Positions 7,807 to 37,501 of a stretch of 64,000 nt of DNA are shown here, piece by piece; the stretch's first letter is position 1; each line of letters starts with the position of its first letter. The position numbers were made by a program, and so were the translations under genes. The stretch comes from Euglena gracilis (taxonomy: Eukaryota), in NCBI GenBank assembly GCA_039621445.1, contig CP154954.1, positions 46,169,847 through 46,233,846 of the forward strand. Reading direction: 5' to 3'. The notes under the pieces are model-generated. The model ran no database searches, was not told the DNA's origin, and saw only the letters and a list, made by a program, of their open reading frames with translations.

Positions 7807-7836
7807 TGCTGTCTGCAAAAAAACAACAACGAAAAA
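7807..7836 (-). promoter_or_regulatory. Polypyrimidine tract plus CAG acceptor 6 nt upstream of the psaD ATG (probable spliced-leader trans-splice acceptor)
   Basis: The minus strand reads a T-rich tract, then GCAG|acagcaATG; the AG is at 7814-7813. Confidence 0.55.
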
Positions 7837-7893
7837 GTCGGGTGTGGAATTTGTACGTCGAAATTCCTAATTGGCCGCCACACACACACGAAA

Positions 7894-12191: not shown

Positions 12192-15100
12192 AAGGGCTTT
12201 ACTACTTTTCAACAAATGTATTACCTTATTTTTTTGTTAAGCATTGACTCACTGAACAGGTAAGCCTCCTTCCCAGCGTGTGTCACACCCATCGGTGTTT
12301 GTGTCGAGTAATCATCCCCCCGCCCAATGGGCACCCCCACACCCATCAGCGTCCACCTCTATAGAGTTACCCAATGCCCAACAGGCACAAACCCTTTTGT
12401 TAGAAAGCCAATCAGCTATCAGCTATTCCCCCCGAGGGAGATCTCGCACTGGTGCCGATAGGCACATTTGACTATGAGGAGGATGCACAACGACAACTTT
12501 TTGTCAAGGGTGGGTTATAAACGCCGTGTTTTTTCCAACCCCTCCCCATGCGCTTCCCTTCACAAGTCCAATAGAACAAATGCCAGCACCACCCGATGCG
12601 GATCATTTTCCTGCATTGCCATGGCACCCGGAGATGCGTTTGACGGCACCCGCTAATGCAAGCCCCGCAAAATCCATGAGCAATGATGTGGAAGAGTTGG
12701 GAAATACTTCCATTCATCCCGTTACCGTGATTCAGCGCATAGTCGCAAACCTCCCGGTTGACCACCCGCTTGTGTGGCAAATTTCTCCTGCCCACACTTG
12801 TGTTGCAGATTGCGCTATGCCGCTTAACAAGGTTTTGAGTTTTTGATGAAAACAACCAAAAGGTTGTGGAAAACAAGCTGGATTACTTATGGAGATATGT
12901 GCGTGATGTTGGTGAATCTTGCCAAACAAATTTTCACTCCACCAATGTGGACCGAGCAACTTTGCGTCAAGGTTTGCAGAAGTTGCGTGAACCCCCCATT
13001 GAAAATCCCAATTTGGGACAAGTGATCAATCTGCTGCAATTATCTACCCTTGCAACTGCATTTCAGGAAGCACAACGGCGCATTCTCCATTTGAGCGGTG
13101 ATTCCGCGAACTTTTCCCACTGTTTTTCCCAAGCGCATGAAAGTTTGGCCCACTTGAGCATCCCCTTGGGGGTTGCCTTTTGGCCCCCTCAACCTTCCCC
13201 TTCCTTTACCAACCCTTGCCTTGGCCAAAATGGCCGTTGGGTCCCCTTGGGGGCCAGTGGGGCCTCAAAAGGCCCTTGGGGGCCTTGGAGCCCCCTCGCG
13301 GCCCTTCGTGGCCCCTTTGGGCCCCCTTGTGACCCCTCCTTGGGGCGGGCACCGCCGGACCGCGCACAAGATTTTCAGTGGACCATAGATTAACAGCCAA
13401 CGAGGGGACGTTAATTTTGACACAGCCAGACCCTGAAAATTTAATGTTCGCAGATTTAACAGCTGAGTCTTCTAATCTGGCCATAGGGGGGCCAGCCGGG
13501 CTGTTAAATCAAGCAGGGTCTAACATGGAAATCAGGGGGGATGAGGAAATGGGAACTCGCACTACCTGTTTTTCAGCCCCCCCCGTTTTTGGACCACGGC
13601 CCCCCGAATCAAATTGTCAGATGATGGGGGGTGACGCAATGACGTTAGTTTGACTCATGGACCAATGGGCACATGGGGTGGATTGTTATTAACAGGCATT
13701 GAGCCGAAGCATAACTAACCGGGAGAGCATAATTCCCTCCAAGGTCGTAATTGAAAATCGGCTGGAAGATTGTGAGAAGAATTTGGCTGAAAAGAATGCC
13801 AGAGCACAGGCAGAACTTTTGCAATCCATTCCTGAAAATTTGGAGAGGCGAACGGCTGAAATGTGCAGCCAGTTTGAGCACGAAAAACAAAAATTCAGGA
13901 GCAAATTCAGCAATCAGTCAGTCAATTTACTTTTTGATGCCAGGATAGGGGGAGTGCTGTGGAAAACATTGCGAACAGCCACAAACAGCTTTTGGGGATT
14001 GAAGTTAAAAGGCAGATCGAAGGAAAGTTTCATGATCTTGAGAAAAAGTTACGAGATTTTCTGGGTTGTCAACTGGCACAATTTGAGAGCCATGGAAAAC
14101 ATGGCCAGATAAAATTGTTTGCACCAGGTGGGTTGATCGAACAAGTTGGAATTTGTTCGCATTCTGTTGAGGGAATTAACTCAGGTTTTCAGAAGGAAAT
14201 TTTGGCAGTTCGACAAGCAAATTGTGAGCTATGCTCTGGGGTGGACAGAAAAATTGCTGAAAACGCTGCTGGGCTGAAAATGGTGGGGGAGGAATCAAAA
14301 TCAAGTTTTGGGACATTGGCCCAGGAAAATCAGCAGCGATTTGAAGCAACTAGAAACGAAAGCAAAGCTCTTGGGGGCAGGATCACAGCAACTGAGAAAT
14401 TTCTGGGCAGCCAAGAGGTGCCTTGGGTGAAGGTGGTTGAAATGCTGGGGAAATCAGAAGCAACAATTCAACTGGATGTTTGGAGGGAAATGGCCGCCCA
14501 GGTCAGAAAAATGATGAAATCTTTGATGGTGCAAATGAAGGATGAAAATCTGAGGCAAACCCAAAAGGAAGAACACTTTTAAAAACTGCAAACTGACATT
14601 GAAATGGAGTGAAACAGCAATTTTTCACAGTTTTGATGAACATGCAGACAGATTTTCAGTGTGAAAAGAGTTAACGGGATGGTTTGCAAAAAACCGTATC
14701 AAACTTTGCGGTTCGGGAAATTTCAGCCGAAAATGCACAGCAAACTGACCGCAAGGCTCCTATGTGGCCCAGCCCAAGGCTACAAATCAAAAGAATTAAG
14801 GATTTTTTGGAATTAAGAGGGTGTCACCGGCTCAGTCATCTGGGATTTTCGGGATTAAGGGGGTGACCACAACGATGCCATGTGAAGTCTGGGATGTAGA
14901 TCTGAGCGGGGGCAGACCATCAAGTAGTTTGCAGGGGGTGCAGTTGCAAAAAATCAGGTCATTGGCAATTGTGCAATGGGGGAGGCACCCCAACAACCCG
15001 CAGTCATAAGTGTTGGTAACCCAGCGGTGCAGCATGTGTTGAGAAATTTGATTGCACCCAAATTTTCGGGGAAATTTCAGGATTGGCGGCAATTTTGTGA

Positions 15101-16775
15101 GGATTGGCAGGCGTTTTCAAGGAAACTGAATTCTGCAGGGGGGGGGGAGTGAGTGAAGATTTTAAAGTTGCTCTGTTGGAGGATTGTCTTGAGGAAACGA
15201 GCAAAAAAATTATGAAGCTCCTTCTCAAAAATTCCCCCTCGTGAATTTCCGACACTTTTGTGGGTCTTTTCCCAAGCATTCTCCCCAAGCTTTCCGAAAC
15301 CATTTCTGAATCGTATTCACTGGCACCTTTAGGCGTAAGGTTGGCTGAATATTCAGCCTCCTTTTCTTTTTATATGAAACCCATTTTAGGATGAATGAGA
15401 GAAGTTTCTGCAACAAATGTCGTTTTGCTTCCCCCTCCTTGACATCCTTAACCTTGCACTTGGCCATCTTGAACTTTGCCTGAAACTCAAGCCAGTGCTC
15501 AAGGGCTACTTTGCCCATATTAAAAAGGCTCACCTGCTGCCAACTTTGTTTTGCCCCACCTTCCTGATTCCCTGAAAATGTCATTTCCAGGTGACCCTAA
15601 ACGGCATTAAAATTTATTCGAAGTCATTTTCCCTGACATTTCTGCCTATGAAAAAGTCAAAAGTTTTTATGGCAAAGAGTTTGGCGATTCAATCGTTTTG
15701 TTTCAGGTTCAGGAAATTGAACCAATTTCGACCACCGAGGATATATGCAACCTCGTGAAAGCAAAGTTGACACTCAGAAACAAACATGAACCCTTGCAAA
15801 GTTCTGTTTCATCCCCAGGCTATCAAGGGTTTAGGCGTTCAAGATCGGTTGTCGCTGAAAACCGAGGGGGGAGACAATCGGGGAGTCGGAAGAGTTCACC
15901 TGGGTATACCCCGGGTAGGGCAACGACGCCTCCCCCAACCAGAAGCAAATCGCAAATCAGCGAAACAGCATAACCTGATCAATCTGTTGCGTTATTATCC
16001 TCAAATGTGCAGACATCAAGCACTTCTTCAAGGCTGACAACGGTGGAGAACCCACCCAAGGCAAAGACCGGTGGTGGGGGGGCACAATGGATCCCTCCCC
16101 CGTCACAATCAACAACGCCCTATTTTGCTAGACAAGCCCCGTGGAACAGAAACAATTTTCAGCCGTATGACAAGGGCAGCCAATGGAAAGGGGGGAACAA
16201 TTCCCAGGGATATGGGGAAAATAACCCCCAATGGTATGGGGGTAACCAACAGGGGTACAAGGGGAAGGGTGGTAAGGGCAGGGGGAGACAGAAGGTTATG
16301 TATGACCAGAATTTCAGTGTCAAAGGGGGGAAGGGCAAGAACAATAACCCTACACCAACGATGGCCCCCCTGTACGCCTTTAGGGATGATGGGGTAAAAT
16401 TTATCAGGGGCTTATAACCCCAGGCAGTGAAACCCCCAAGCAAGCTTCTAAACCCGACCCTTCCACCCATAAACTCCAAACCACGAACAATCGAACCACA
16501 AACGAAATGACCGGGAGCGGAGCTTGGAGTGAAGTCAAATTGGCTGGCCGAGCTTAGCGTGATGGAGTGAGGGAGCGAGAAGCCAAGACCCCCCGGAGCC
16601 AAGGAGAGCAGGCACGGCGAGGAGGCGGGCGAAGGAGGTATGAAGGGGAAGCGAATCCCCTCCCATTCCTTTCGCGTGCACATCCCTCCCAATTCCACAT
16701 GCCAATACAAAACTATCATGATTGTTTGAGTGGGAATAGGTGGGCCTCAAACAAAAAGTTGGCCAGAAACTTTCC

Positions 16776-17380
16776 AGGGAATTGGACCTTTATTCTGGGA
16801 AACATTCAGTGGAAAATTGGTTGCAGGAAAAACGTTATGAGGCGATTTCAGTGGACATCAACCCAGGTTTTCACCCAACCCATCCCGTGGACTTTCCTAC
16901 CGTGGGAGTATCGAGCATACCCCCCTGGAAACTTTCAGGTCATAACGGCATGTGTGCCTTGCACGGGGTATAGCCGTGCTAAGACGGTGGGAGAAAGAAG
17001 TTTGGAGTGGCAGACCAACTTGTGACAATAACTTTGGAAATCGTGGAATGTTTTCAGCCCAAATTATGGTGGATTGAAAATCCCCGAACGGGACTTTTGC
17101 CAAAAAGGCATTGTGTGCAACACTTGAATTTTATCGATGTGGATTATTGTCAACGTTCTGACTGGGGATACCAAAAACCCACTCGGATTTGGGGGAATGA
17201 AAATTTGTTGAGTTTGAAAACAAACTTTGTGATGGGAAAAACCTGCCCGCATTTGATTGTGAGGGAAGGGGGTGGTTTGGTTCACAAAGAACAGTTTGGA
17301 GGAAACGGAATGAGGGTGAGCATTCAACAAAATGGGGGCCACCTGAAAAATTAGTTGAGTACCTTCTTTCGGCCCTTGAT
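16776..17380 (+). pseudogene. C5-cytosine DNA methyltransferase domain in element A, copy 1 (frameshifted)
   Basis: Motif I LDLYSG, II SVDIN, IV VPCTGYS (catalytic PC), VI WWIENP and VIII-like DYCQ...YQKPTRIW. Confidence 0.85.
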
Positions 17381-17409
17381 TTTAAGAAGAAAAGATTTTC
17401 CTTTAAGTG

Positions 17410-17790
17410 TGAGGCTTATGCCGTTCGAAACTCATTTGTGCACATGATCGAGGAGAATTTTCAAATAAGGGCCGAGAGAGGTGGATTTTTTTGCTTCTAC
17501 CCAAAATTCTCAGTGCACATCATGTTTGACCGAGAAGGGAAATGCTTTGGCGGTACCATGGGGAGGGGTGGGGCACGGTTTGGTTGAACCCCTCCTTGGT
17601 CATTATGGCCAAAGGTGGCAAAGAAATTGCGATTGCATCTTGCGTGATTGGAGCAAAGTTTGGGTAAGGTAATTTATCGGGAGGCATCAAAAAGTTTTAT
17701 TTTCCACCCGGAAGCAAGCTTTTTGAGGTGGATTGGAAACGAATGTGGGGTGTTAGGTAGGGAGTTTGGGCCTTGTTGATAGAGGGTAAT
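17410..17790 (+). pseudogene. Dam-like N6-adenine DNA methyltransferase domain in element A, copy 1 (frameshifted)
   Basis: EAYAV...DFFAS..NS...NAL..PW; WLNPPW is restored by removing one C from the run at about 17589-17592; followed by DW...LFE...VRW-like motifs. Confidence 0.75.
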
Positions 17791-20700
17791 AAGTCCCCCG
17801 CTATCACCGGCAACCCCAGGGAACCTAGGGTGGTACAGTTGAAGTTACGAATGTTTAAAAGGAGGTACCCACCCACAGGGATTAAGAAATTTTTGAAGGA
17901 CCGACGACTTTTGATTCGGACTAGGGTTGTTTTGGGGAACGGTGAGGAACAAAATATGGACATTTTGGCAGACACCGGTGCCGAGCCTAACCTCATTAGG
18001 CAAGGGTTAGTGAGTGAGCACCTGATGTATTCGGCCGAACACCCCTTGAGGTTTGAAACCACTAACGGTCAAGCCTTGAGTGGTGGGGGGAGGTGCACTA
18101 ATGTGGTGATGACGTTGCAAGGGGAGGTGAGTGACAACACACCACCCACATATTTTGAGTACGATGTGTAATTTTAAGAAGCCAATATAAAAGTCGACGT
18201 AATTCTATCATACCGATGGTTTGTATGCACAAAAATCGAAGTTTTTCCACACCACCGTGCCTTGGTAGTGGAGGAACCGGAATTGACATTTTTGTTCGGA
18301 GTGAGAGATCACAGGAGAAAACGGCAACGAAAAGTCCCTTGCACCCTACCCCAAGGAGGGGGTGTGACAAATTTGGAAAAGCTTGGCTTTCGCATTCTGA
18401 TGGAGGGTTATTGATTAATGGGGAAAAGCCTTGGACGAAGATTCACTCAAAAATTTGGGCAGGAATTTGGAAACTGCAAGTGACAACCCCCTACTGTTAT
18501 TCACAAAATGATCACTGCAAGGGAGTGGAAGGGGAGTAAAGAAACGGAATCCGAAGAGGAAGACATAATAATAAAGCTAAGAGAGGAAATTTTTGGAAGG
18601 TATGATGGAACCGTATTTCGGTCTAAGGAACAACCCGACCCACCCGTAAGAGGTCCATATGGTTATGCATTATTATCTTTGCAAGAAGGAGCGCGGCCTA
18701 CCCGACAAAAACCTTTTTTCATGCACGGGGAACGAAAAGAAGCTTTGGAAAAAATCACTCAAGATTGGATCGATATGAAATTCATCGAGCCAGCCACAAC
18801 AAAATATTCAGAATGGCTCTCACAAACATTCCCTGTGCCCAAAAAGTCAGCCGATTTCCCTTGGAGGGGGGTTTTGACACAAGGGGACACAACAGCCAAT
18901 CCAGTAGATGCAACCGCCGTCTTCCTAAAATCGAACACATCCTGGTGAAGAATGGTGCAAAAGATGTTCTCCATTTTGGATTTAAAACAAGCCTTCCACC
19001 AACAGCCGCTTTACCCGGATAGCAGGCCTATAACTTGCTCCTTCACACCAAAGGGTCTTTACCAATGGAGGGTGAATGTAATGGGGTTGTGGCATTAGAC
19101 ATGTCCCTACCTTTCAGATGAATTAGGCTGCGCCAGATAATGCCCGCGTGCTGCACACTCCGATTTTTGTTTTTTATGTACAGCCAGACCTCATGAATTG
19201 ATTGCTGGACCCATGGGTCGTGGCCCCCTGGCGTATATCTGGATCAATGGACTGACTGAAGGTTTGTGCTGTGGCTGAAGTTTGAAAAATTGAAGTGGAA
19301 GTTGCCTGCCAATGGGTAGTAAAATCATTTTGGTGCAGTTATCCACACTTGCAACTTGATTTCAGGAAGCTTAATGGCTCATTTCCAGTTGAGCGGTGAT
19401 TTCGCGAACTTTTCCCACTGTTTTTCCCAAGCGCATGAAAGTTCTGCCTACTTGTGCATCCCCTTGGGGGTTGCCTTTTGGCCCCCTCAACCTGCCCCCT
19501 CCTTTACCTACCCTTGCCTTGGCCAAAAAGTCTGTGGGGTCCCCTTGGGGGCCAGTGGGGCCTCAAAAGGCCCTTGTGGGGCCTTGGAGCCCCCTCGCGG
19601 CCCTTCGTGGCCCCTTTGGGCCCCCTTGTGACCCCTCCTTGGGGCGGGCACCGCCGGACCGCGCACAAGATTTTCAGTGGACCATAGATTAACAGCCAAC
19701 GAGGGGACGTTAATTTTGACACAGCCAGACCCTTAAAATTTAATGTCAGCAGATTTAACAGCCGAGTCTTCTAATCTGGCCATAGGGTGGCCAGCCGGGC
19801 TGTTAAATCATGCAGGGTCTAACATGGAAATCAGGAGGGATGAGGAAATGGGAACTCGCACTACCTGTTTTTCAGCCCCCCGTTTTTGGACCACGGCCCC
19901 CCGAATCAAATTGTCAGATGATGGGGGGTGATGCAATGACTTTACTTTGACTCATGGACCAATGGGCACATGGGGCGGATTGTTATTAACAGGAATTGAG
20001 CCGAAGCATAACTAACCGGGAGAGCATAATTCCCTCCAAGGTCGTAATTGAAAATCGGCTGGAAGTTGTGAGAAGAATTTGGCTGAAAAGAATGCCAGAG
20101 CACAGGCAGGACTTTTGCAATCCATTCCTGAAAATTTGGAGAGGCGAACGGCTGAAATGTGCAGCCAGTTTGAGCACGAAAAACAAAAATTCAGGAGCAA
20201 ATTCAGCAATCAGTCAGTCAATTTACTTTTTGATGCCAGGATAGGGGGAGTGCTGTGGAAAACATTGCGAACAGCCACAAACAGCTTTTGGGGATTGAAG
20301 TTAAAAGGCAGATCGAAGGAAAGTTTCATGATCTTGAGAAAAAGTTACGAGATTTTCTGGGTTGTCAACTAGCACAATTTGAGAGCCATGGAAAAGACGT
20401 CCAGATAAAATTGTTTGCACCAGGTGGGTTGATCGAACAAGTTGGAATTTGTTCGCATTCTGTTGAGGGAATTAACTCAGGTTTTCAGAAGGAAATTTTG
20501 GCAGTTCGACAAGCAAATCGTGGCCTATGCTCTGGGGTGGACAGAAAAATTGCTGAAAACGCTGCTGGGCTGAAAATGGTGGGGGAGGAATCAAAATCAA
20601 GTTTTGGGACATTGGCCCAGGAAAATCAGCAGCGATTTGAAGCAACTAGAAACGAAAGCAAAGCTCTTGGGGGCAGGATCACAGCAACTGAGAAATTTCT

Positions 20701-23190
20701 GGGCAGCCAGGAGGTGCCTTGGGTGAAGGTGGTTGAAATGCTGTGGAAATCAGAAGCAACAATTCAACTGGATGTTTGGAGGGAAATGGCCGCCCAGGTC
20801 AGAAAAATGATGAAATCTTTGATGGTGCAAATGAAGGATGAAAATCTGAGGCAAAACCAAAAGGAAGAACATTTTTAAAAACTGCAAACTGACATTGAAA
20901 TGGAGTGAAACAGCAATTTTTCACAGTTTTGATGACATGCAGACGGATTTTCAGTGTGAAAAGAGTTAACGGGATGGTTTGCAAAAAACCGTATCAAACT
21001 TTGCGGTTCGGGAAATTTCAGCCGAAAATGCACAGCAAACTGACCGCAAGGCTCCTATGTGGCCCAGCCCAAGGCTACAAATCAAAAGAATTAAGGATTT
21101 TTTGGAATTAAGAGGGTGTCACCAGCTCAATCATCTGAGGTTTTCGGGATTAAGGGGGTGACCACAACGATGCCGTGTGAAGTCTGGGATGTAGATCTGA
21201 GCGGGTGCAGACCATCAAGTAGTTTGCAGGGGGTGCAGTTGCAATAAATCAGGTCATTGGCATTTGTGCCATTGGGCGGGAACCCCAGCGACCCGCAGTC
21301 ATAAGTGTTGGTAACTCAGCGGTGCAGCATGTGTTGAGAAATTTGATTGCACCCAAATTTTCGGGGAAATCTCATGATTGGCTGCAATTTTGTGAGGATT
21401 GGCAGGAATTTTCAAGGAAACTGAATTCTGCAGGGGGGGGAGTGAGTGAAGATTATAAAGTTGCTCTGTTGCTGGATTGTCTTGACAAAACGAGCAAAAA
21501 AATTCTATAGCTTCATCTCAATAAAGGGGTGATAAATTTTAATGCCGTTTAGGGTCACCTGGAAATGACATTTTCAGGGAATCAGGAAGGTGGGGCAAAA
21601 CAAAGTTGGCAGCAGGTGAGCCTTTTTAATATGGGCAAAGTAGCCCTTGAGCACTGGCTTGAGTTTCAGGCAAAGTTCAATATGGCCAAGTACAAGGTTA
21701 AGGATGTCGGGGAGGGGGAAGCAAAACGACATTTGTTGCAGAAACTTCCCTCATTCATCCTAAAATGGGTTTCATATGACAGGAAAAGGAGGCGGAATAA
21801 TCAGCCAACCTTACGCCTTTCGGCATCCCCTTTTTTTTTATGCCTCCCTCCTCTACCTTCTTCTTTCACTTTGTTCTTCCTTTCATGTTCCGGAGGTCGG
21901 ATATGCTTCCTACTAGCCATCACCTTACGCCTAAAGGTGCCAGTGAATAGGATTCAGAAATGGTTTCGGACAGCTTGGGGAGAATGCTTGGGAAAAGACC
22001 CACAAAAGTGTCGGAAATGCACGAGGGGAAATTCGAAGTCATTTTCCCTGACATTTCTGCCTATGAAAAAGTCAAAAGTTTTTATGGCAAAGAGTTTGAC
22101 GATTCAATCGTTTTGTTTCAGGTTCAGGAAATTGAACCAATTTCGACCACCGAGGATATCTTCAACCTCGTGAAAGCAAAGTTGACACTCAGAAACAAAC
22201 ATGAAGCCTTGCAAAGTTCTGTTTCATCCCCAGGCTATCAAGGGCTTTGGCGTTCAAGATCGGTTGGCGCTGAAAATCGAGGGGGGAGACAATCGGGGAG
22301 TCGGAAGAGTTCACCTGGGTGTACCCCGGGTAGGGCAATGAAACCTCCCCCAACCAGAAGCAAATCGCAAATCAGCGAAACAGCATAACCTGATCAATCT
22401 GTTGCGTTATAATCTTCAAATGTGCAGACATCAAGCACTTCTTCAAGGCTGACAACGGTGGAGAACCCACCCAATGGGCAAAGACCGGTGGTGGGGGGGC
22501 ACAATGGATCCCACCCCCGTCACAGTCAACAACGCCCTATTTTGCCAGACAAGCCCCGTGGAACAGAAACAATTTTCAGCCGTATGACAAGGGCAGCCAA
22601 TGGAAAGGGGGGAACAATTCCCAGGGTTATGGGGAAAATAACCCCCAATGGTATGGGGGTAACCAACAGGGGTACAAGGGGAAGGGTGGTAAGGGCAGGG
22701 GGAGACAGAAGGTTATGACCAGAATTTCAGTGTCAAAGGGGGGAAGGGCAAGAACAATAACCCTACACCAACGATTGCCACCCCTGTACGCCTTTAGGGA
22801 TGATGGGGTAAAATTTATCAGGGGCTTATAACCCCAGGCAGTGAAACCCCCAACCCAGCTTCTAAACCCGACCCTTCCACCCATAAACTCCAAACCACGA
22901 ACAATCGAACCACAAACGAAATGACCGGGAGCGGAGCTTGGAGTGAAGTCAAATTGGCTGGCCGAGCTTAGTGTGATGGAGTGAGGGAGCGAGAAGCCAA
23001 GACCCCCCGGAGCCAAGGAGAGCAGTCACGGCGAGGAGGCGGGCGAAGGAGGTATGAAGGGGAAGCGAATCCCCTCCCATTCCTTTCGCGTGCACATCCC
23101 TCCAAATTCTACATGCCAATTCAAAACTATCATGATTGTTTGAGTGGGAATAGGTGGGCCTCAAACAAAAAGTTGGCCAGAAACTTTCCC

Positions 23191-23795
23191 AGGGAATTGG
23201 ACCTTTATTCTGGGAAACATTCAGTGAAAAATTGGTTGCAGGAAAAGCGTTATGAGGCGATTTCAGTGGACATCAACCCAGGTTTTCTCCCAACCCATCC
23301 CGTGGACATTCCTACCGTGGGAGTATCGAGCATACCCCCCTGGAAACTTTCAGGTCATAACGGCATGTGTGCCTTGCACGGGGTATAGCCGTGCTAAGAC
23401 GGTGGGAGAAAGAAGTTTGGAGTGGCAGACCAACTTGTGACAATAACTTTGGAAATCGTGGAATGTTTTCAGCCCAAATTATGGTGGATTGAAAATCCCC
23501 GAACGGGACTTTTGCCAAAAAGGCATTGTGTGCAACACTTGAATTTTATCGATGTGGATTATTGTCAATGTTCTGACTGGGGATACCAAAAACCCACTCG
23601 GATTTGGGTGAGTGAAAATCTGTTGAGTTTGAGAACAAACTTTGTGATGGGAAAAACCTGCCCGCATTTGATTGTGAGGGAAGGGGGTAGTTTGGTTCAC
23701 AAAGAACAGTGTGGAGGAAACGGAATGAGGGTGAGCATTCAACAAAAATGGGGGCCACCTGAAAAATTGGTTGAGTACCTTCTTTCGGCCCTTGA
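23191..23795 (+). pseudogene. C5-cytosine DNA methyltransferase domain in element A, copy 2
   Basis: RELDLYSGKHS, VPCTGYSRAKT, WWIENPRTG, DYCQCSDWGYQKPTRIW and motif X-like PPEKLVEYLL, spread across ORFs 22981-23388, 23252-23440 and 23422-24003. Confidence 0.85.
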
Positions 23796-23825
23796 TTTTA
23801 AGAAGAAAAGATTTTCCTTTAAGTG

Positions 23826-24200
23826 TGAGGCTTATGCCGTTCGAAACTCATTTGTGCACATGATCGAGGAGAATTTTCAAATAAGGGCCGAGAGAGGTGG
23901 ATGTTTTTGCTTCTACCCAAAATTCTCAGTGCACATCACGTTTGACCGAGAAGGGAAATGCTTTGGCGGTACCATGGGGAGGGGTGGGGCACGGTTTGGT
24001 TGAACCCCCCCTTTGTCATTATGGCCAAAGGTGGCAAAGAAATTGCGATTGCATCTTGCGTGATTGGAGCAAAGGTTGGGTAAGGTAATTTCTCGGGAGG
24101 CATCAAAAAGATTCATTTTCCACCCGGAAGCAAGCTTTTTGAGGTGGATTGGAAACCAATGGGGGGTGTTAGGTGGGCAGTTTGGGCCTTGTTGATAGAG
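23826..24200 (+). pseudogene. Dam-like N6-adenine DNA methyltransferase domain in element A, copy 2
   Basis: EAYAVRNSF...DVFASTQNS...GNALAVPW...VWLNPP...DWSKGW...GSKLFEV...GGVRWAVWALL, reading across frameshifts. Confidence 0.75.
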
Positions 24201-25505
24201 GGTAATAATTCCCCCGCTATCACCGGCAACCCCTAGAAACCTAGGGTAGTACACTTGAAGTTACGAATGGCTAAAAGGAGGTACCCACCCACAGGGATTG
24301 AGAAATTTTTGAAGGCCCGACGACTTTTGATTCGGACTAGGGTTGTTTTGGGGAACGGTGAGGAACAGAATATGGACATTTTGGCAGACACCGGTGCCGA
24401 GCCTAACCTCATTAGGCAAGGGTTAGTGAGTGAGCACCTGATGTATTCAGCCGAACACCCCTTGAGGTTTGAAACCACTAACGGTCAAGCCTTGAGTGGT
24501 GGGGGGAGGTGCACTAATGTGGTGATGAAGTTGCAAGGGGAGGTGAGTGACAACACACCACCCACATATTTTGAGTACGATGTGTAATTTGAAGAAGCCA
24601 ATATAAAAGTCGACGTAATTCTATCATACCGATGGCTTGTACGCACAAAAGTCGAAGTTTTTCCACACCACCGTGCCTTGGTAGTGGAGGAACCGGAATT
24701 GACATTTTTTTTCGGAGTGAGAGATCACAGGAGAAAACGGCAACGAAAAGTCCCTTGCACCCTACCCCAAGGAGGGGGTGTGACAAATTTGGAAAAGCTT
24801 GGCTTGCGCATTCTGATGGAGGGTTATTGATCAATGGGGAAAAGCCTTGGACGAAGATTCACTCAAAAATTTGGGCAGGAATTTGGAAACTGCAAGTGAC
24901 AACCCCCTACTGTTATTCACAAAATGATCACTGCAAGGGAGTGGAAGGGGAGCAAAGAAACGTAATCCGAAGAAGAAGACATAATAATAAAGCTAAGAGA
25001 CGAAATTTTTGGAAGGTAAGATGGAACCGTATTTCGGTCTAAGGAACAACCCGACCCACCCGTAAGAGGACCATATGGTTATGCATTATTACATTTGCAA
25101 GAAGGAGCGCGGCCTACCCGACAAAAACCATTTTTAATGCACGGGGAACGAAAAGAAGCTTTATAAAAAACCACTCAAGATTGGATCGATATGAAATTCA
25201 TCGAGCCAGCCACAACAAAATATTCAGAATGGCTCTCACAAACATTCCCGTGCCCAAAAAGTCAGCCGATTTCCCTTGGAGGCGGTTGTTGACACGAGGG
25301 GACCCAACAGCCAATGCAGTAGATGCAACCACCGTCTTCCTAAAATCGAAGACATCCTGGTGAAGCATGGTGCAAAACCAGACGTTCTCAATTTTGGATT
25401 TAAAACAAGACTTCCACCAACAGCCGCTTCACCCGGACAGCAGGCCTATAACTTGCTCCTTCACACCAAAGGGTCTTTACCAATGGAGGGTGAATGTAAT
25501 GGGGT

Positions 25506-25884
25506 TGTGGCATTGGACATTTCCCTACCTTTCAGATGAATTAGGCTTCGCCAGGTAATCTGCTCATTTTTTTTCTGTACAGTCAGACCTCATGAGTTGA
25601 TTGCTAGGCCCATGGGTCGTGGCCCCCTGGCGTGTATCAGGATCATGGGACTGACTGAAGGCTTGGAGATTTGAGTTTTGTGCTGTGGCTGAAGTTTGAA
25701 AAATTGAAGTAGAAGTTGCCTGCCAATGGGTGGGAATCCAAGGCCCACGGCGGAAGGCGAAGCAAAGGTATTGCAAAACCCAAGGCGAAGCCGAAGCCAG
25801 CCAAACAGGGGGCCCGGGGTCGGGCAGCTAAAAATGTATGAATTGCGAAGATAGCCCCCACCCAGGCGCCGCCCCTGTTTTACA
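25506..25884. mobile_element. Solo LTR (379 bp) inserted in the RT of element A
   Basis: Ends tgtggc...ttttaca; TSD gggt at 25502-25505 and 25885-25888; removal restores MGLTNA. A truncated copy sits at 19088-19317. Confidence 0.85.
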
Positions 25885-26173
25885 GGGTTAACTAACGCCT
25901 CACAACAAATACAACAAATGATGGATGACCGTTTAGCACCTGTAAGGGATATTGCCACCCCATACATTGATTACATTTTGGTAGGGTCCACTTTCGGGGA
26001 GGGGGAGGGTGTCCCCGAGGCAAACAAAAGGGTTTTGTGTAGGGTTTTGGATTTACTCACCGAGGAAATTTTTGTAGTGGACTCCAAAAAAGCGAAACTA
26101 TTCATCAAGGAAGTGGAATTTTGTTGCCAGATTTTTGGGGCATGGCACGCGTCGGCCGGCCCCCGGCAAATTA

Positions 26174-26722
26174 AACCCCCCCCCCAAATATAAGAAACCC
26201 CTCGCTATAAGAAACCCCCAAATATAAGAAACCCTTTGGCTGATTTTCAGCCGACACCCAAATATAAGAAACCCCCAAATATAAGAAACCCCTGGGCTGT
26301 TGGACGTCAATCCAAATATAAGAAACCCCTCATTTTCACCATGGGTCACAGCAAATCTCAAGGCGCGATCAACACAAAGATGAAGCCAATCTAGTCTATT
26401 GCTTCTTTGCAAAGCAAGAGTTCAGAAGCAACTGCTTTTTGGAAACACCTGTCCGTGTCACGACCCCCTTCCCGACTGTTTGAATGGCAGTCAGACATGA
26501 GGACAATCCTACACACACATGTGATGATTAATTACATGTGGTCACATGTAATTAATTATATGAAGGAACCGAAGGAAGAAAAAGTTCCATTTATAAGAAA
26601 CCCTTGGGGCCGGCCTTCGACACCCAAATATAAGAAACCCCCAAATATAAGAAACCCTTTGGGCCGATCGGCCGACACCCAAATATAAGAAACGGGTTTC
26701 TTATATTTGGGGGGGGGGGGTT
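26174..26722. mobile_element. TA-targeting MITE inserted in the RT of element A
   Basis: TIR aa(c)n-aaatataagaaaccc / gggtttcttatattt-(g)n-tt with TA flanks; removal restores PGKL|RAIEKW; many aaatataagaaaccc subterminal copies. Confidence 0.9.
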
Positions 26723-29700
26723 TACGCGCCATTGAAAAATGGGAGTGTACCTACAACCTTAACGGCATTAAGGGCTTTCCTCGGCTTCACAAATTATTAC
26801 AACACCTACATACACATGGATGCTCAAGTGGCGGCACCTTTGCAAGATAGTTTAAAGGTGTCTCAGGAGGAAGGCAAGAAAGGGAGCAAAAAAATGCGTT
26901 GAATTCGGGGAGGTTGCACACAAAGCATTTGAACAGTTAAAGAAGTGGTTGCTTTGCGGATTGATTCTTCAAAGGGTAGACCCCTTTGCTTTGAGGGTTG
27001 ATGCGAGTGGGTATGCCGTAGGACAAACTTTGGAACAACTCAAAGAAGGAAACGGTACGCCCACACCCCAAGAACTTTTTGGACAAGAAAACGGTGCTTG
27101 TTGCTTTTATGTCCCGAAAACTCACCGAGGGGCAAAGAAAATGGACCGCCCTGGACCTGGAGACATATGCCATAACTTTGGCACTCCAAAAATGCGAGAG
27201 CTGGATCGGTCCGCAACCCGTTTTGGTGTTGACCGATAACCAAAGTTTTGAGGCATGGGAAAAGGAAGCGCTCGACACCCCAAGTGGACCGGTGGGGAGG
27301 AGGGCACGATGGCACCAAATTTTCTCAAAATGCGATTTGAAAGTGGGGTACATTCCGGGGAAGGAAAACACTATCGCCCTCAGTTTAAGTCGGTGAGCGC
27401 ACCCCGCGTCGCACGCTTTAAGGGACATTAGTAAACACGGATCTGCTGAGGATAAGAAGGAAATGGAGGACCTCATAAGAGAGGAGAGTGAAGATGAGAA
27501 AAATTGCTTGTTGGTCAAATTCAAAAACCAGCCTATCGCTCGTAACATGTGGATAAGGGGGGGTAACCCGCAGTGGAAAAGAGGTGGCACCCAATTTTGT
27601 GGATGATGCATCAGGGAGGGGTACCGACAGTGTAGAAAGTCCGGGACGAATAAGCACCACCGAAGACGCTCACTCACAAGGGCCTAGGGATTTCTGGTTC
27701 GAAAAACGGTAAGAGGAGAGTTACCTTTTGGGATGGAGTGGACCCTGCGGGACATTTGGTGACTAGCCCAAAACTTCCGACTAATGAGTTACCAAGGGGG
27801 AGGGACGGAGAAGGTGTGGCCAACTCCAAGTGCAACCCCCAAGCTAACAAAATGAGTTTGGGAGAGAGATTGGGTAGTTGCGTGTACCGAATGATCATCT
27901 TGGAAGGAAATTTGGCTAGCAACTCAAAATGACGGTGAGTGGCCAAATGGTGTTAAATTTCACAAAGACCGTAAACAAATATGTTTTTTTTGAGGTGAGG
28001 TTGTGTGTTCCACTTTCTTTTCAAGAATTAATTGCGCAAGAAGTCCATGAATTCTTGGGACATGTTGGTCCCAAAAAAGTGTGGAATTTAATCATTTTGC
28101 GGTACGCATGGGCTGATGAAAAAAGGGCACTTGTTTTAAACGAAAGTTGTTCCAAAAATTGTGTCACATGCCAAGCAAGTTCACGGCGGGAGACTTTGAA
28201 GGGACACATATATTCAACACCCATTCCACCGGCACCCATGGTGAGTGTGGCCTTAGATCTTTTCAAAATGCCATTGGCAAAGTATAAGGGGGAAAAGTAC
28301 AATACCATGGCGGTGTGTGTTGAACGGCACTCCGGTTGGATCGTGGCCATACCGTTTTTAGAAAACGCTCAAACATTGGAGGGCTTTTCGGATTCGTTCA
28401 ATCATTTCTAGTGACCAAGGGAGTCATTTCGTGAACACATGGTGGCAAACCATGTACTCATTTTTTGGGACTTCGACAAGCTTTTTCTCAACGCTACCAC
28501 CACCAAGCCAACGGGCGGGTGGAAAGGGGGTCAACAAGTAATGCAGATTTTGACGAAACTCTTTGTGGACGGAAAAATGATTTGGGTTGAGGCTCTACCC
28601 CAAACTTTGGACAGGATTCTTGATGTGAAGGGGGAGGGTGGTTTTAGCCCATACCAAATTATGACCGGTAGGAAACGTCCTTTTGGGGGGGGTCCCTTAC
28701 CAAGCACCAAAAGAGTGCCAGGGTTCCCAACTATTTTTTCATCGAATGAAGCTAATCCATGAAACGGTGGCAAAGGGTTCAAACCATACCCATGAGGTCC
28801 AAGCTGAAAGGATTAACCGAGGTCGAAGGGAAATGGAACCATTAAAAATTGGAACCCATGTGTGGTACAAACGACCTGAGGGTTCGGGTGAAAAATCAAG
28901 TTAGAGGTGGATTGGTCCCGGTATTGTTAAAGCTCGGGAGGGGGAGAGGAGCTACGTTGTGGAAACCAAACTGGGTGTGCAAATTAGGACACACTGATGT
29001 TTTCTAAAGGAGCACAGGGAACCACCAGTTTTTGGCAAATGGGTTCCTCTTTATTTTTTCAAACGGACTGAAAAAGAGGATGAGGCAATGCCCGATGAGT
29101 TGGAGGTTGAGAAAATTTTGGCCCACCGTAGGAAGGAGGATTCGTGGAATTTCTCACCAAGTGGGTTGGTTGTGAGGAGGAGGAAGAAACCTGGGATAAT
29201 ATTGGAGTTTCATTCACCGTTCCAGGAATGAGTTTGTTCGGTATTGTGCCCACAAAAATCTGAAGGTGAATTTAATTTGGGGGCTTCAAAAAAATCTGTG
29301 AGCCAATTTCAATTGCGGCCCAATTTTGCTTTTCTTTCGGATTTGACGGGGTACGCTCAATTTTTAGAAACTCTGGGAGGTGGAACGGGGCCGAGTGCTG
29401 TGCGGCACCGGGGGGACGTGATTTCTCGCTCCTCCGCTCATTTCTATCCTCCATTTTGTATTTGCACGTTTTTTTTGTATGCGGGCAAATAAACACACAC
29501 ACACTTGATTTTTTTTGCGTGCGTACACATGCGTGCATTATTATTTTGCTTGTTTTGCCCGCGACACTTTATCTTGCTTATTCTTGTTGTTTAGAATTGG
29601 CCTCTTTATCACAGGAGTGAAGCGGGAAGCTCCAGCACTCCGCGAGCCCCGACCTAGTGATTATTGTAAATAGCCGCTGTGCATGTGTAAATACCAAAGT

Positions 29701-30732
29701 GCGGGCATTCCTTCAAAGTTAGGATGGAGGAAGGAAGGGGGAACGGAGGTTGGAAGGTTCCGTTTGTCAATTACCAACGTGACCACAATCAACTCCTCCA
29801 CCGCCGCCTTCACCTCCAACGCCGACACCAACACCACCGCCCCCATCAACCACGCCTTAGCACTCCAACTTCTACGCTCGACGACTTCAATAGCACACAA
29901 AACATCATGCCGGGTTGGGGGGTGAGGAATGGAGAAGGAGGATGGCGCGCCGAGTACAGGCGCGTGTTGGAAATGAGGGGTTCCGGGGAACTCAACGAAA
30001 TTTGTGGAAATTGTTCTCGTGAGACGAACCATTTTGTTGCCAACAATATTTGAGCAGGGGCGAAAGTACACAAAAACCTGCACGACGTGCGGATTTGAGG
30101 ATGATTGCACGCCATGGGGGGATGCGCTGACAAGGAAAGAGGTTGGGACACAAACAAATGTGTTGGAGATGGGGCCTTTGGACAACACACATCCCCCTCG
30201 AAGGTATGGACCCCCCATTTTTGGGAGCCGCGGTCGAGTGGGAGCCGGAGGCCACTCATCCCCCTCCCCCCCCACGACGTGCGGCTTCGCAAGCCCCCCT
30301 GAACTCCAACGACGGTTGAATGGACAAGCCCCCGGACCACGGCCACGACCACAACAAGAAGCCCCCATGAATGGAGGGTTTAACACAACGTGGTCCGAAG
30401 AATGAATAATTTTTGAAATCGGCCTATATGCCTTTTCTCTCACTCTCCTTTTTTTTCTCCCAACCCCAATGCATTTCTCTCTTCTTTTTTCTACAGCCCA
30501 CAAAAGCTACTTTTCTGCCAGAACGCAAGACCCGGGTGGCCGCGGCCCAGGCCCGACCCACATACAGTATGATTTGCCTCCCTACCCCCCACACGCCCAT
30601 GCGGCGGCCCCACCAGCCCAAGGGACGTCCGCGTATGTGCGTATGTGGTATATCAACCCCGTCCTGCCGCCTGCGCGGCCCAGGCACAAATGCCACCTCC
30701 CGCTCAAACGGTTCAGGCACAAATGCCATATC

Positions 30733-33700
30733 TGGACGTTTCAGAATATTCTTTTGTGTTCCTTGAAATCCTCGGATTTACAATTTTCTTGATATCCCAA
30801 TTGTCCCAAAGAGGTAAACACAAGCCAATGTGACATGAAACCAGAGCCAGCAGTCTGCGGGGGGGGGGGGGAGGGAAGTTCGAATTAGGAATACAAAAGT
30901 CAGTTCCGCAGTTGGTAAGGTAAGCGGTCAGCAAATAGTTCGCACACGACCCCCATGCCGGAGGACGCGGCGCCACAGGCACAGGACGAAACAGCATCAC
31001 ACCACAAAAAAAGGCGGCTTTACGGTTTTTCAAGCATTGATGAATGTGTTCCACACGAATTGTCCACAAAAGGTTCAGAACGACAAATGTCAACACAAAG
31101 AAAGGTAAAAGAGGTTACTTCCGACATTCACCGCGGTCCCTTCACTTCGTGGTTGGCTTGCATTTCAAAGGTAACACAAACCTGGGCGAAACTCCTTGCA
31201 TCAATGGCAGGTTTGCGACTGAAAGCCCTCAAAGGTTAGATGACAATCCACCATGGCGAGGCGGGTTGGTGTCTCCTGACCCGAAAAAACATCCAAAAAG
31301 GCCCCCTAAGGGGCTTGACTTTCTTCCCGCGTGTCTGAAAGCACGATCAAAACGTTTGGGGAGAGGCCAGGCTGTCTCTTGAGATGCCAATCCCCATTCA
31401 CATTCTTAAACGTCACAAAACATTCTGAGCGCCTGACGCATGCTCCCACCAAACCAAAAATTTCCATTCCCCTTGGTTCTTGTGCTCAAAATCTTGTAAA
31501 CATTGTAAAAACCCAATTGTGCTTGTTCTTCTTCTGACATCTGAAGGAGGGTCCCATCCCTGGTATGGCACGGGGGTGACACCTGCACTGGGTCTCCCAC
31601 AACCACATCACCGGTCAAAAGGTCTGGGTCTTCTTCCTAAAGACTTTCTTCATTCAAAGCAACCTCCCACTTTTTGCAAAAACCCAAAGAAACATAAATG
31701 ACCCCTCCCAAAGATGGACTGCCTGCAATTTGCACTGAATTGAACCTCAATTTGAGAACCCGAAAAGGTCCTTGCCAGGGGGGGAAAGCTTGGGCAATGA
31801 TTTTTTTGGCCATGTGAACCAAAACATAGACATCTTCTTGAATTTCTTGCTGGTACCCTCCCTTTGTTGGCACTCTCAAAATCTTTTTCCCTCAATTCTT
31901 TCAATCTCTGGGAAGCTCTTTCTTGAATTTCAATGTGGGTCAAAAGCCAGGAATGGGTGTCTGGGTTTGTCACCGGTTCTGGGGGTAATTCAAACCTCCA
32001 AGGTGGTCTTCCCAAAAACATTTCATGGTGTGACAGCATTGTTGTGGGGGGAACCTGTGAATTCATCAAAAATGTGCAATACGGAATCAATTGAACCCAA
32101 TTTTTGTCCTTGGAAGACAGACACAAAGCTCTCATACTCTGCAAAAACATTTTGTTGACATTTACAACCAAACCGTTTGATCTGTGGTTCCGGGGTAGCG
32201 AAAACGATAATTTCACGTCTAGAGCTTTTAACGCTGTCTGGTAAAAACCACTGGGCTGTCTGAATTGCACGTCGTTGTCAGACCTCACAACGGATGGTTT
32301 TCCAAAAACAGCAATCCACCTGTCTAAAATAAGCCTCAAATCACCTTCTCCGGTTACCGTTTTCTGTGTGGGGATGAATTGGCAAAAATGGGACAAATTA
32401 TCGACCAAAGTCAGCACATAGTCAATACCATTGTAGGGGTCCATTTGCATAAAATCCAAACACAAAACTTCACTGCTCACTGTTGACATCGGTAAAGAAC
32501 CCACCTTTCATCGGTCACTGGGGCGGTTTTGTTTTGAAAGGGTGCAAATTTCACAGGTCATCACAATGGCCTTGCAAATTTCCAACATGTCTTTCTTGGA
32601 CACCTTCGACTGAAATGGCTCAAAAAGAACAACAAAGTCCTTTCAGCACCCACATGGTTGCTTGCCTTGTGACATTCATCCAAACAAACCTTCAGCAAAT
32701 GAGATGGAACAACCAACGTTCCTTCGTAATACATTGCCTTGGCAGATCTGAACCAGAGCTCATTGTCAGTGAAACAGGGTTTTGAAACCTCCACATTTTC
32801 CCAAAATTCTTTCAGTTCTGAATTCAAATAATCCTTTTCTGACACTTGCACTCTGTGGGACACACTGAAAATCTTTTGCAAAAACAGGTCAAGCTGCACA
32901 TCCATTTTCTGAAGAGCGCTCCCTGCTTCTTCCTCAAAACGAATTTCAAATTTGCTCTCAAAATCAGCACGAGCCAAAACATCACACAATTCATTTTTGC
33001 AACCTGCCACAAGAACAACGTTCAGTTTGAACTGGTGCAAAAGCACATACATCCTTCTCAGCCTTTTTTTGGGGGGTTCACCCTTCAGAAAAGAGGTGGC
33101 TGCCTCATTGTCTGTCATCCACACAATTGGCAAATGTTGCAAAATCCTTGTTTGTGAAGCAGTGGTCAGCACACCACTCAAAATTTCCTTTACCCAGGTT
33201 GTGTATTTTTTTCTTGCCTCACTCCACTTCCAGTTGTAGTGGCCCAAGGGCACCAACCTCATTTCACTGGGGTAGTTGTTTTTCAGGGTCCCCTCCACTT
33301 TCACACAACTTGTTCGAAAATTTTCAGGAATTTGTGTTTGTTGGAGGGTTTGCCACTGAAACAAAGTAGGACCACTCTCAAATCCGAACTTTCAGTCACC
33401 AAAACAATCTCTCCTGAACTCCTGGGGGTACCTAAAACATCAAGGGATGATAATTTCCTTTTCAAAGCGTTCAAACAACTCTCCTCCTTTTCAGTCCACC
33501 TCCATTTCACCTTCTTTTCAGAAGATCTGTCAGTGGGGCTGAGTCAAAGGTAAAACCTTTCACGTGATTGTGATAAAAATTCATGGCCCCCAAAATTCGC
33601 CTCAAATCCCTTTGGTTCTGAACTCGAAAACTCAGAAATGGTTCAACGTTTCTTTTTTTTTCCTGCCACATTCCCCATCCCAACAAGAAACCCAAGTAGT

Positions 33701-36700: not shown

Positions 36701-37501
36701 GGTTGAACTTTAGCTGGGGTTGCTGGAGTTTGGTTCCACAATTTGCTTCAGAAATGTTTCAACCTGGGTGATGGGGTTCACAGGAGTAAAACCAGACTGA
36801 CTGCTGCTGGATGCTTTTATTTCCAATTCTTGCAACCTCCTTTCCAAATCTTCAATGGAATACATTTCTGCAGATCACTTTCAAAAAAACTCAACTACTG
36901 GCTCTGTAAACTGAGAGAAACTGGCCAACCCAAAAAGACAAACAAAGCTGAAGAAACCAGAACAGAAAACCAACCACTGGGTTCAGGACCACGTCAGCAA
37001 GATCATGAAGATCTTGCCCCCACCAGGTTCTTGTTCTGGACAGCAAGGTGAACAGCAGCACCAGCAGCTTCAATAGCCAAGTAACCAATACAACAACTGT
37101 TGAATTCTCCACTGAGAACTTGTTGACCACAGCTTGAATGACAACTTCCTGTTGAAGATGTTGTTCTGTACCAGCCACTCGGTTAACCTTGCCTTCAGGA
37201 AGACCAACTTCTGGAACTTCAACAACCAGTGAAACAATGATCAATCTCCTCGAAGACTTCTTGGACGATTGGAACAACAAACCTCTGCGACCAACTTTGG
37301 ATGTCTCACAATAATATTTTGTTTTCCTTGAAATCCTCGAATTCCCAATTTTCTAGATATCCCAATTGTCCCAAAGACGTGAACACAAGTCAATGTGACA
37401 TGAAACCACAGCCAGCAGTCTGAGGGGGGGGGGGGAAGTTCGAATTAGGAATACAAAAGTCAGTTCCGCAGTTGGTAAGGTAAGTCAGCAAATAGTTCGC
37501 A
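30733..37501 (-). mobile_element. Element B: full-length degenerate Ty3/Gypsy retrotransposon with order gag - PR - Dam-like MTase - RT - RH - IN (possible chromodomain)
   Basis: LTRs 30733-30944 and 37298-37501 (TG...CA). TSD atatc at 30728-30732 and 37502-37506. tRNA-type PBS tggtcgcagagg (37282-37293). gag SPEFDG..W, RT SPTFLVDKK / LDIRSGYWQI / FFDD, RNase H WMTDN, integrase LCLDF...VRSDND.QF. Confidence 0.92.
35105..35530 (-). pseudogene. Dam-like N6-adenine DNA methyltransferase domain between PR and RT of element B
   Basis: Manual minus-strand translation: SYPLVK...FCIDLFANHLNHTQSLYMTKGNSAYRYS*EKL...FLWANPP(fs)FSQLSKVVTKLCLEETKMVLVCSDWVDQYWSP(fs)LLE...GVPLF...PLWNNFVSVV. Confidence 0.8.

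Follow-up and report, generated by a model that had tools for sequence, protein, structure and literature searches.

The element described here is a decayed Ty3/gypsy-type retrotransposon at 19324–29271 (+ strand) of a 64-kb stretch of Euglena gracilis contig CP154954.1 (the window, meaning the whole stretch of DNA analysed), and its closest described counterparts are the EpiLTRs, long terminal repeat (LTR) retrotransposons of Cymbomonas and Euglena gracilis that combine a Dam-type adenine methyltransferase (DAM), a cytosine methyltransferase (DNMT) and a chromodomain (Fernandez-Moreno et al., bioRxiv 10.64898/2026.05.21.726589). According to the available text of that preprint, the DNMT of the Cymbomonas EpiLTR lies at the 3′ end of pol, DAM elements reach thousands of copies in some species, and Euglena shows CpG hypermethylation together with low LTR expression; the same text has no occurrence of virophages, polintons or metagenomes. 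Earlier, de Mendoza et al. 2018 (PMC5890265) reported SymbioDIRS-Dnmt3, SymbioLINE-Dnmt and KnitGypsy-Dnmt3, with Dam found only in DIRS as far as the available text goes, and with no occurrence in that text of the word chromodomain. The term EpiLTR was returned for a single paper in our literature search, as was the combination of PF05869 with retrotransposon.

We consider it probable that the window contains a single decayed member of a Ty3/gypsy chromovirus-like family of the EpiLTR kind, present in very high copy number, whose intact pol opens with a C5-cytosine methyltransferase-like (C5) and a Dam-like domain and continues with protease (PR), reverse transcriptase (RT), RNase H (RH), integrase (IN) and chromodomain, with the methyltransferases in a marking role and the C5 domain of viral type and captured once. 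The first-pass annotation, made from the letters of the window, had described this architecture as one it did not recognise; it had already appeared in print under the name EpiLTR in May 2026. A transposon that brings along its own enzymes for writing DNA marks, together with a histone reader, inverts the usual picture of silencing by the host, and the window contributes one more such case, decayed and very abundant, in which both methyltransferases head pol.

Organization of the decayed element

By tblastn, residues 166–1900 of an intact metagenomic polyprotein of 1911 amino acids (P0005) align over window positions 23197–29271, spread over many frames. The pol order of the window copy, PR-RT-RH-IN, is that expected of a Ty3/gypsy (Metaviridae) chromovirus and is the same in the intact relatives. 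Coding features are on the + strand unless stated otherwise. The compact C5-cytosine methyltransferase-like domain occupies 23197–23799 in frames 1, 2 and 1 (two frame changes), corresponds to P0005 residues 166–365 and gives a phmmer E value of 2.2e-53. Translation locates within it C5 motif I (LDLYSG, 23197–23214, frame 1), motif IV (VPCTGYS, 23369–23389, frame 2), motif VI (IENPRT, 23488–23505, frame 1), a DVDYCQ signature (23551–23568), the motif VIII-like YQKPTRIW (23584–23607) and the motif X-like GPPEKLV (23752–23772). The Dam-like N6-adenine methyltransferase-like domain follows at 23809–24203 in frames 1, 2 and 3, with two further frame changes and one in-frame stop; it is recognised by PF05869 and by alignment, and includes the pieces AYAVRN (23830–23847, frame 1) and VDVFAS (23897–23914, frame 2), the catalytic motif LNPPF (24000–24014, frame 3) and WALLIEG (24183–24203). 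The aspartic protease is at 24237–24587, with its DTGAE motif at 24387–24401, and is assigned from tblastn to P0005 and from weak Pfam matches (gag-asp_proteas and Asp_protease_2, E 0.05). The series reported in the first-pass annotation, C5 motifs I, IV, VI, VIII-like and X-like, then a Dam-like domain and a DTGA protease, was therefore recovered complete and in order by translation, between 23197 and 24401. The direct passage from C5 into Dam also stands, although the ORF said to contain it, 23422–24003, has to be redrawn: the stop-to-stop open reading frame (ORF) across the methyltransferase block is 23398–24003, and the two domains are spread over frames 1, 2, 1, 2 and 3.

The remainder of pol is similarly decayed, with the RT, integrase and chromodomain also split between frames. 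The RT occupies 25043–26139 in three frames (RVT_1 E 0.0055 on 25364–25558; tblastn to P0005 residues 854–1023), RNase H lies at 26728–27396 (RT_RNaseH E 7.6e-13, and RT_RNaseH_2, in Pfam), and the integrase, with its H2C2 zinc domain and core, is at 27920–28904 in several frames (Integrase_H2C2 E 3.8e-6; tblastn to P0005 residues 1315–1860). A chromodomain remnant closes the element at 29112–29271, split over three frames, as the first-pass annotation had proposed; Pfam finds no chromodomain in ORF 28998–29231, and the remnant is known by the tblastn homology of 29147–29271 to P0005 residues 1859–1900, the P0005 Chromo domain itself being at residues 1843–1879. A 543-bp insertion resembling a miniature inverted-repeat transposable element (26176–26718, no strand assigned) has 25-bp perfect terminal inverted repeats, and homology to P0005 is broken at 26209–26728. 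We note that this insertion also has internal short direct repeats and that it disrupts pol in the linker between RT and RNase H. The window copy is dead, and capable of none of the functions proposed below for live copies.

Intact relatives and domain order

An exhaustive phmmer search with ORF 23398–24003 matched 733 representative clusters at E≤0.001, 273 of them at E≤1e-10, the best, at the value given above, being metagenomic proteins; with such E values the observation is far beyond chance. Cluster records looked up for eight proteins supplied no informative name. A word-indexed search for longer proteins with the same query returned 29, and precomputed Pfam annotation places PF00145 and PF05869 together in seven of these. 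Two of the relatives, P0005 and P0008 (1763 amino acids), are uninterrupted single ORFs from independent metagenomic contigs, and both have the Pfam order PF00145, PF05869, RVT_1, RT_RNaseH, Integrase_H2C2, rve and Chromo, with the protease between PF05869 and RVT_1. In P0005 the C5 match spans residues 166–274, Dam 381–445 and RVT_1 855–1021, followed by RNase H, the integrase zinc and core domains, and Chromo. The chromodomain family PF00385 is above its cut-off at the C-termini of P0005, P0008, P0105 and P0189. Both of the intact proteins thus combine DAM, DNMT and chromodomain in one LTR-retrotransposon unit, as EpiLTRs are defined, and the window has a decayed copy of the same order. That a gypsy chromovirus carries C5 and Dam in one frame with pol, which the first-pass annotation had hoped to see in a family consensus, is borne out by these two natural ORFs with no consensus needed.

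The Pfam searches that it had also proposed separate the intact from the broken. PF05869 exceeds its cut-off of 28.1 bits in four intact or near-intact relatives, P0005 (44.2), P0008 (45.3), P0003 (44.7) and P0001 (41.3), and PF00145 exceeds its own in the same four; the window pieces fall below, with 23.9 bits for PF05869 (E 3.8e-5, 23885–24088) and 11.2 bits for PF00145 (E 0.24, cut-off 22).

Domain orders were compiled for 33 fetched relatives having both C5 and protease; they are approximate, being derived from BLAST coverage against P0005. Five have C5-Dam-PR (P0005, P0008 and three partial ORFs), and 18 have C5-PR with no Dam. The others are PR-C5 (four), PR-Dam-C5 (three), and PR-C5-Dam, Dam-C5-PR and Dam-PR-C5 (one each). 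Dam is missing from 22 of the 33, and C5 is present in all of them since it was the query. One protein counted as C5-PR, P0069, has a degenerate Dam-like stretch in the alignment. We also note that in P0016–P0018, P0144, P0029 and P0169 either C5 and Dam come after the protease or Dam lies ahead of C5. From these sequences the modules appear to have been reshuffled repeatedly, into seven domain orders, and C5-only chromoviruses to outnumber dual ones among the relatives found. The expectation that sister copies would keep the methyltransferase block, on which the first-pass annotation had staked its reading, is accordingly borne out in part: relatives do have C5 and Dam in frame with pol, but most have no Dam.

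The two methyltransferase domains

The C5 motifs I (FxGxG), IV (PC), VI, VIII and X occur in the standard order and are all present in the window, in shifted frames. Across 48 rows with transposon context, motif I has F in 100%, G in 97% and G in 86%, motif IV has P in 95% and C in 100%, motif VI has E in 100%, N in 87% and P in 100%, and the K-P-T-R of motif VIII is kept in 100, 100, 100 and 97%. The third residue of motif VI is Pro, and motif VIII reads QKPTR instead of QxRxR. The NPP motif followed by W, F or Y (NPPW, NPPF, NPPY) is retained in most Dam-bearing relatives and in the window copy. We take the near-invariance of the catalytic residues as an argument for selection on chemistry, which is distinct from a demonstration of activity.

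An AlphaFold model of P0008 residues 1–360 has a mean pLDDT (predicted local distance difference test) of 91.9 and resolves two domains, 13–214 and 227–353. By Foldseek the model matches DNMT3B, DNMT3A and DNMT1 at E ∼1e-8 and probability 1, and a PDB profile search finds DNMT1 at E 8e-5 over motifs IV–VI. When residues 7–216 are aligned with VIA-align, the best matches are DNMT3B (Z 15.0), DNMT3A (Z 14.5) and M.HhaI (Z 13.6; 198 aligned, root-mean-square deviation (rmsd) 3.8), and the alignment covers the whole catalytic core of the C5 enzymes while bypassing their target-recognition domains. The first module is thus modelled as a compact enzyme, about 200 residues long and nearly devoid of a target-recognition domain. 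The second domain (model residues 223–355) aligns with E. coli Dam at Z 8.9 (109 aligned, rmsd 3.1, VIA-align), and both the sequence and the model indicate a Dam-like N6-adenine methyltransferase domain that is small, at about 140 residues. A Dam-only alignment had misaligned the window ORF onto C5 domains and was dropped, so that the assessment of Dam relies on the two-domain model. Together the predicted C5 and Dam domains would write 5-methylcytosine (5mC) and N6-methyladenine (6mA).

The most serious alternative is that neither domain modifies DNA, both being modules that bind nucleic acid or S-adenosylmethionine, or acting on RNA or on an RNA:DNA intermediate, in which case the description as a writer of 5mC plus 6mA would be wrong. 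Several points favor it. The structural match with the highest score that includes the second domain is the RNA cap adenosine methyltransferase PCIF1/CAPAM (Z 11.2, 129 aligned, rmsd 2.6), compared to Z 8.9 for E. coli Dam, although its range of 156–359 also reaches back over the last part of the C5 domain; the C5 domain also matches DNMT2-type tRNA methyltransferases (Z 10.4–10.8), and with some 200 residues it has hardly any target-recognition domain. In addition, the available text of the EpiLTR preprint (10.64898/2026.05.21.726589) reports that eukaryotic DAMs expressed in dam-deficient E. coli did not raise 6mA, and that they are without the first catalytic subdomain of bacterial Dam (CD-1 and TR-1 are both listed as missing). 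However, the motif IV Cys and motif VI Glu are invariant in all 48 of the transposon-context rows and most Dam rows retain the NPP-aromatic motif, pointing to chemistry and not just to binding. Structurally, the C5 domain matches best with enzymes acting on DNA (DNMT3B, DNMT3A and M.HhaI), its compact phage homologues are annotated (by annotation only) as DNA cytosine methylases, and in the same preprint text DAM-LTR insertions are reported to carry more 6mA than the remaining LTRs do. We therefore regard this alternative as unlikely, and favor two DNA methyltransferases at the head of pol.

Tandem duplication, copy number and expression

Self-BLAST reveals that the upstream part of the element is present twice. 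The first unit (copy A, 13025–19317, + strand) is about 6.3 kb in length and runs from the upstream region to the middle of the RT; the second (copy B, 19324–25731, + strand) continues into the rest of pol. The matching segments are 13025–15231 with 19324–21524 and 15616–19317 with 22031–25731, at 95.7–96% identity, and a small inverted piece at 15331–15617 matches 21818–21532. The C5-like and Dam-like block of copy A is at 16782–17787 (+ strand) and its protease DTGAE at 17971–17985, so that the first-pass annotation was right to see the same order at 16776–17790, but this is a tandem duplicate and not a separate copy. It was also right that both are frameshifted. Four frame changes in the methyltransferase block are common to copies A and B, and copy A has one private change in addition, between 17192 and 17336; the Dam motif is LNPS in copy A and LNPPF in copy B. 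Because the four changes are shared, the duplication postdates the death of the element, and the two copies count as one witness, not as independent ones. The 5′ two-thirds of the element was duplicated in tandem after the insertion had decayed.

The family is abundant in DNA of the source, with 1767 and 2202 contigs in two DNA runs matching 21200–26150 and a summed word depth for those contigs ranging from thousands to 150,000; the family is thus highly repeated. The methyltransferase block is as deep in these runs as the flanking pol, and one-base length variants are found among sister copies at several sites within it. In two RNA runs (sampled at about 5% and 6%) there were 141 and 18 reads, nearly all upstream of 23192 and mostly partial fits. 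Two features of the window agree with such a host and are not diagnostic: the moderate CpG depletion (observed/expected ratio 0.58) is compatible with a CpG-methylating genome, and the presence of three different Dam-bearing elements within 64 kb is compatible with Euglena gracilis.

These data bear on whether the methyltransferase block is instead a nested or chimeric insertion, derived from a virus or a DIRS element, in an ordinary gypsy element, or else an assembly artefact. The window is a transposon graveyard with nested events such as that at 26176–26718, Dam-like domains are present at two other places in it, and the available text of 10.64898/2026.05.21.726589 cautions about nested insertions and assembly artefacts in Euglena. 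However, the complete order C5-Dam-PR-RT-RH-IN-chromodomain recurs in independent contigs as single ORFs of 1911 and 1763 amino acids, C5-Dam-PR is present in three more partial ORFs, and the DNA-run depth is equal for the block and the flanking pol; this explanation is largely refuted, and we give it very little credence. Least probable of all is a role of the locus in regulating host chromatin through the methyltransferases, whether as a gene of the host or as a transposon gene that was domesticated; for it one could cite the ORF at 20234–20878 that is open in both duplicates, but against it stand the identical frameshifts of the methyltransferase block in both units, the near absence of RNA over it and the very high copy number of the family.

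Relatives outside transposons and the origin of the C5 domain

A scan of metagenome contigs seeded on two peptide patterns yielded 34 loci, which fall into two groups. Seven have 50–58% GC, and three of these (L002, L003 and L005) are flanked by retroelement domains. The other 27 have 24–44% GC, and on contigs with listed ORFs the methyltransferase is a stand-alone protein of about 200–315 amino acids. These low-GC mini C5 proteins (among L004–L030), which come from aquatic metagenomes, have 29–44% identity to the query over about 160–200 residues and share with it the motifs WGYQKPTR and DVDYCQ. Neighboring genes were read on five low-GC contigs, some of which have virus hallmark genes: L011 encodes a primase-helicase alongside a Sputnik-type major capsid protein; an A32-type ATPase is present on L018 and a D5-type primase on L019, and L014 has collagen repeats and a helicase. 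In L004 there are weak matches to a TET/JBP dioxygenase and a TET-associated glycosyltransferase near the mini C5 (619–5316), and we note that this gene set resembles the phage clusters of C5 methyltransferase, 5mYOX and glycosyltransferase genes described in the available text of bioRxiv 10.1101/2023.12.21.572611. Phage homologues comprise 85 records with about 28% identity over some 80% of a 253-residue query, and a protein atlas search with the C5 and Dam part of P0005 gives its best scores, 0.86, with phage clusters, which we treat as a lead only.

A quick maximum-likelihood tree of C5 domains (130 rows, 211 columns, rooted on three phage rows) took in 23 of the 34 metagenome loci as low-GC rows (24–40%); L031–L034 were too short and were left out. 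All of the C5 rows with transposon context fall in one clade of 99 rows, separate from the low-GC viral rows, with a support of 97 in the Shimodaira-Hasegawa-like approximate likelihood ratio test (SH-aLRT). The window C5 lies within an 11-row clade of C5-Dam relatives that includes all five C5-Dam-PR proteins (SH-aLRT 94).

We tentatively suggest, as a possibility that we would place somewhat short of probable, that the C5 module is of viral type and was captured once from a pool of phages or small protist DNA viruses (virophages or polinton-like viruses) and not from a cellular DNMT. It may then have founded a large and mostly unrecognised chromovirus radiation in aquatic protists, mostly with C5 alone, in which Dam and the protease were reshuffled into at least seven orders. 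Should this be correct, virus-to-retrotransposon exchange of DNA-modification genes would be recurrent, the origin given as sister to DNMT4 would need revision, and C5-only elements would escape a DAM-based screen. Among the literature matches listed, no title links virophages and retrotransposons through a methyltransferase.

A proposed role for the methyltransferases in live copies

For live copies we propose the following sequence of events. The polyprotein would be cut by its own protease, and both methyltransferases could afterwards accompany the replication complex, marking either the fresh cDNA of the element or its integration site. 5mC may let a new copy match the heavily CpG-methylated host genome, and 6mA would serve as a mark of permissive chromatin; the chromodomain would read histone marks and so steer integration. 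The C5 domain, in this scheme, would have been captured once from the compact methyltransferases of phages or small protist DNA viruses, and subsequently reshuffled with Dam and the protease.

A number of observations weigh against parts of this account, in addition to the negative DAM assays and the reduced form of eukaryotic DAMs already described. First, the methyltransferase block of the window has at least four frame changes, there are in-frame stops, and the element contains a foreign insertion. Secondly, no LTRs were found by self-BLAST, by a word-size-7 BLAST of 19324–21600 against 29000–32000, or by a repeat search within 19000–31500; truncation of the copy or decay of its LTRs may account for this. 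Thirdly, the PF00145 matches of P0005, P0008, P0003 and P0001, at 25.3–28.2 bits against a cut-off of 22, cover only positions 3–118 of the 324 in the profile. Fourthly, RNA over 23192–26150 (methyltransferases, protease and RT) amounts to between zero and about one read per bin. With regard to the origin of the C5 domain, the two-pattern seeding of the metagenome scan could find only close kin, the tree is a quick one with a three-phage root, and the transposon clade includes 50 context-less fragments among its 99 rows; moreover, the available text of 10.64898/2026.05.21.726589 places the EpiLTR DNMTs as sister to DNMT4, a family outside the comparisons made here.

The upstream region

The first-pass annotation had placed the methyltransferases between gag and protease. 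Their position ahead of the protease holds; a gag is not recognisable. The gag-like region at 21223–22831 (+ strand) is a candidate on the basis of its position: it has no Pfam family at E≤1 in 21223–22388 or 22394–22831 (six ORFs of the region were searched, and none supports a gag) and no match upstream of 22978 in tblastn with all of the fetched relatives' proteins, and a tblastx comparison with seven related loci and with two further parts of the window yielded nothing useful. Its high DNA-run depth shows that it is part of the repeat family. P0008 begins only about 13 residues ahead of its C5 domain, from which we conclude that the pol ORF starts with the methyltransferases.

Upstream of the gag-like region is an open ORF of 214 amino acids with no assigned family (20234–20878, + strand), which is also open in copy A at 13938–14582. 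Pfam gives no family below E 0.46 for it, and the protein atlas nothing usable (best score 0.90, recognition 1101, below the 2300 mark). We note that it stays open in both duplication units although the downstream pol is frameshifted. RNA reads on 22973–23059 cover only a piece of about 85 bases and continue on both sides into sequence that is not in the window, indicating that this piece is also within some expressed transcript elsewhere.

Other features of the window

A second and different gypsy-type element lies on the − strand at 31650–36709. Its ORFs comprise a gag-like one and those of protease, RT, RNase H and integrase. Protease and RT are separated in it by a Dam-like stretch (35216–35687), and it gives no match to C5. 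To its right, an open ORF of 301 amino acids (39692–40597, + strand) contains an intact Dam-like domain (PF05869 E 1.5e-10, 41.4 bits) in which NPPW is kept, preceded by an acidic, low-complexity N-terminus. Near the left end is a 426-amino acid open frame (7759–9039, + strand) of normal composition and with no Pfam family, which is probably a mobile-element protein, and at 45034–46820 there is a satellite-like array whose tandem and inverted repeat units are about 43–110 bases long and 82–96% identical. Pfam searches with nine other long ORFs of the window gave transposon domains only, and Rfam and tRNA scans of the window gave nothing.

Comparison with known systems

The window family resembles the EpiLTRs in having Dam-like, C5 and chromodomain components in one gypsy-type polyprotein and in being very abundant. 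The two differ in layout, as far as the preprint text allows: the DNMT of the Cymbomonas EpiLTR is 3′ in pol, whereas both methyltransferases of the window family are 5′, ahead of the protease. The Euglena EpiLTR layout is called structurally distinct in that text without being spelled out, and the comparison with it is by description only. They differ also in the affinities of the cytosine methyltransferase, which is sister to DNMT4 in the EpiLTRs according to the preprint, while the nearest relatives that we found for the window family are compact viral-type enzymes.

The elements of de Mendoza et al. likewise have a C5 domain inside a retrotransposon coding region, which in KnitGypsy is the gypsy pol (PMC5890265, available text). 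Their enzymes are of the DNMT3 type, or a Symbiodinium-specific DNMT in ORF1 of a long interspersed nuclear element (LINE), with no Dam, in contrast to the minimal C5 domain of about 200 residues in the window family. The Dam-like MT domain of DIRS elements shares with ours the PF05869 family, the NPP-aromatic motif and a location in a retroelement polyprotein (PMC5890265 and 10.64898/2026.05.21.726589, with PF05869 also named in PMC3783388, each in the text available), but DIRS elements have a tyrosine recombinase and split repeats, and in the window family a DDE integrase is joined to a chromodomain, with the domains in gypsy order.

Outside the retrotransposons, the C-5 cytosine-specific DNA methylase I of Bacillus phage Bcp1 (KJ451625.1, coding sequence of 666 bases) is of similar size, has about 27–28% identity over some 80% of the query (the whole C5 domain) and shares the PC, ENP and KPT motifs. 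The phage enzymes differ in being encoded by stand-alone genes and in the replacement of the motif VIII arginine in the three phage rows compared. The C5 proteins of the low-GC virophage- or polinton-like contigs (L004–L030) are similarly alike in size and signature motifs, but no retroelement domain is fused to them, and the quick tree puts them in clades of their own. If the compact C5 domain is active, few eukaryote-associated C5 DNA methyltransferases would be as small, and it would be convenient for biochemistry. The kind of element described here is already known from the 2026 preprint; what is new is the placement of the two modules at the head of pol, a compact, viral-type C5 domain with viral relatives, and the many C5-only and rearranged lineages.

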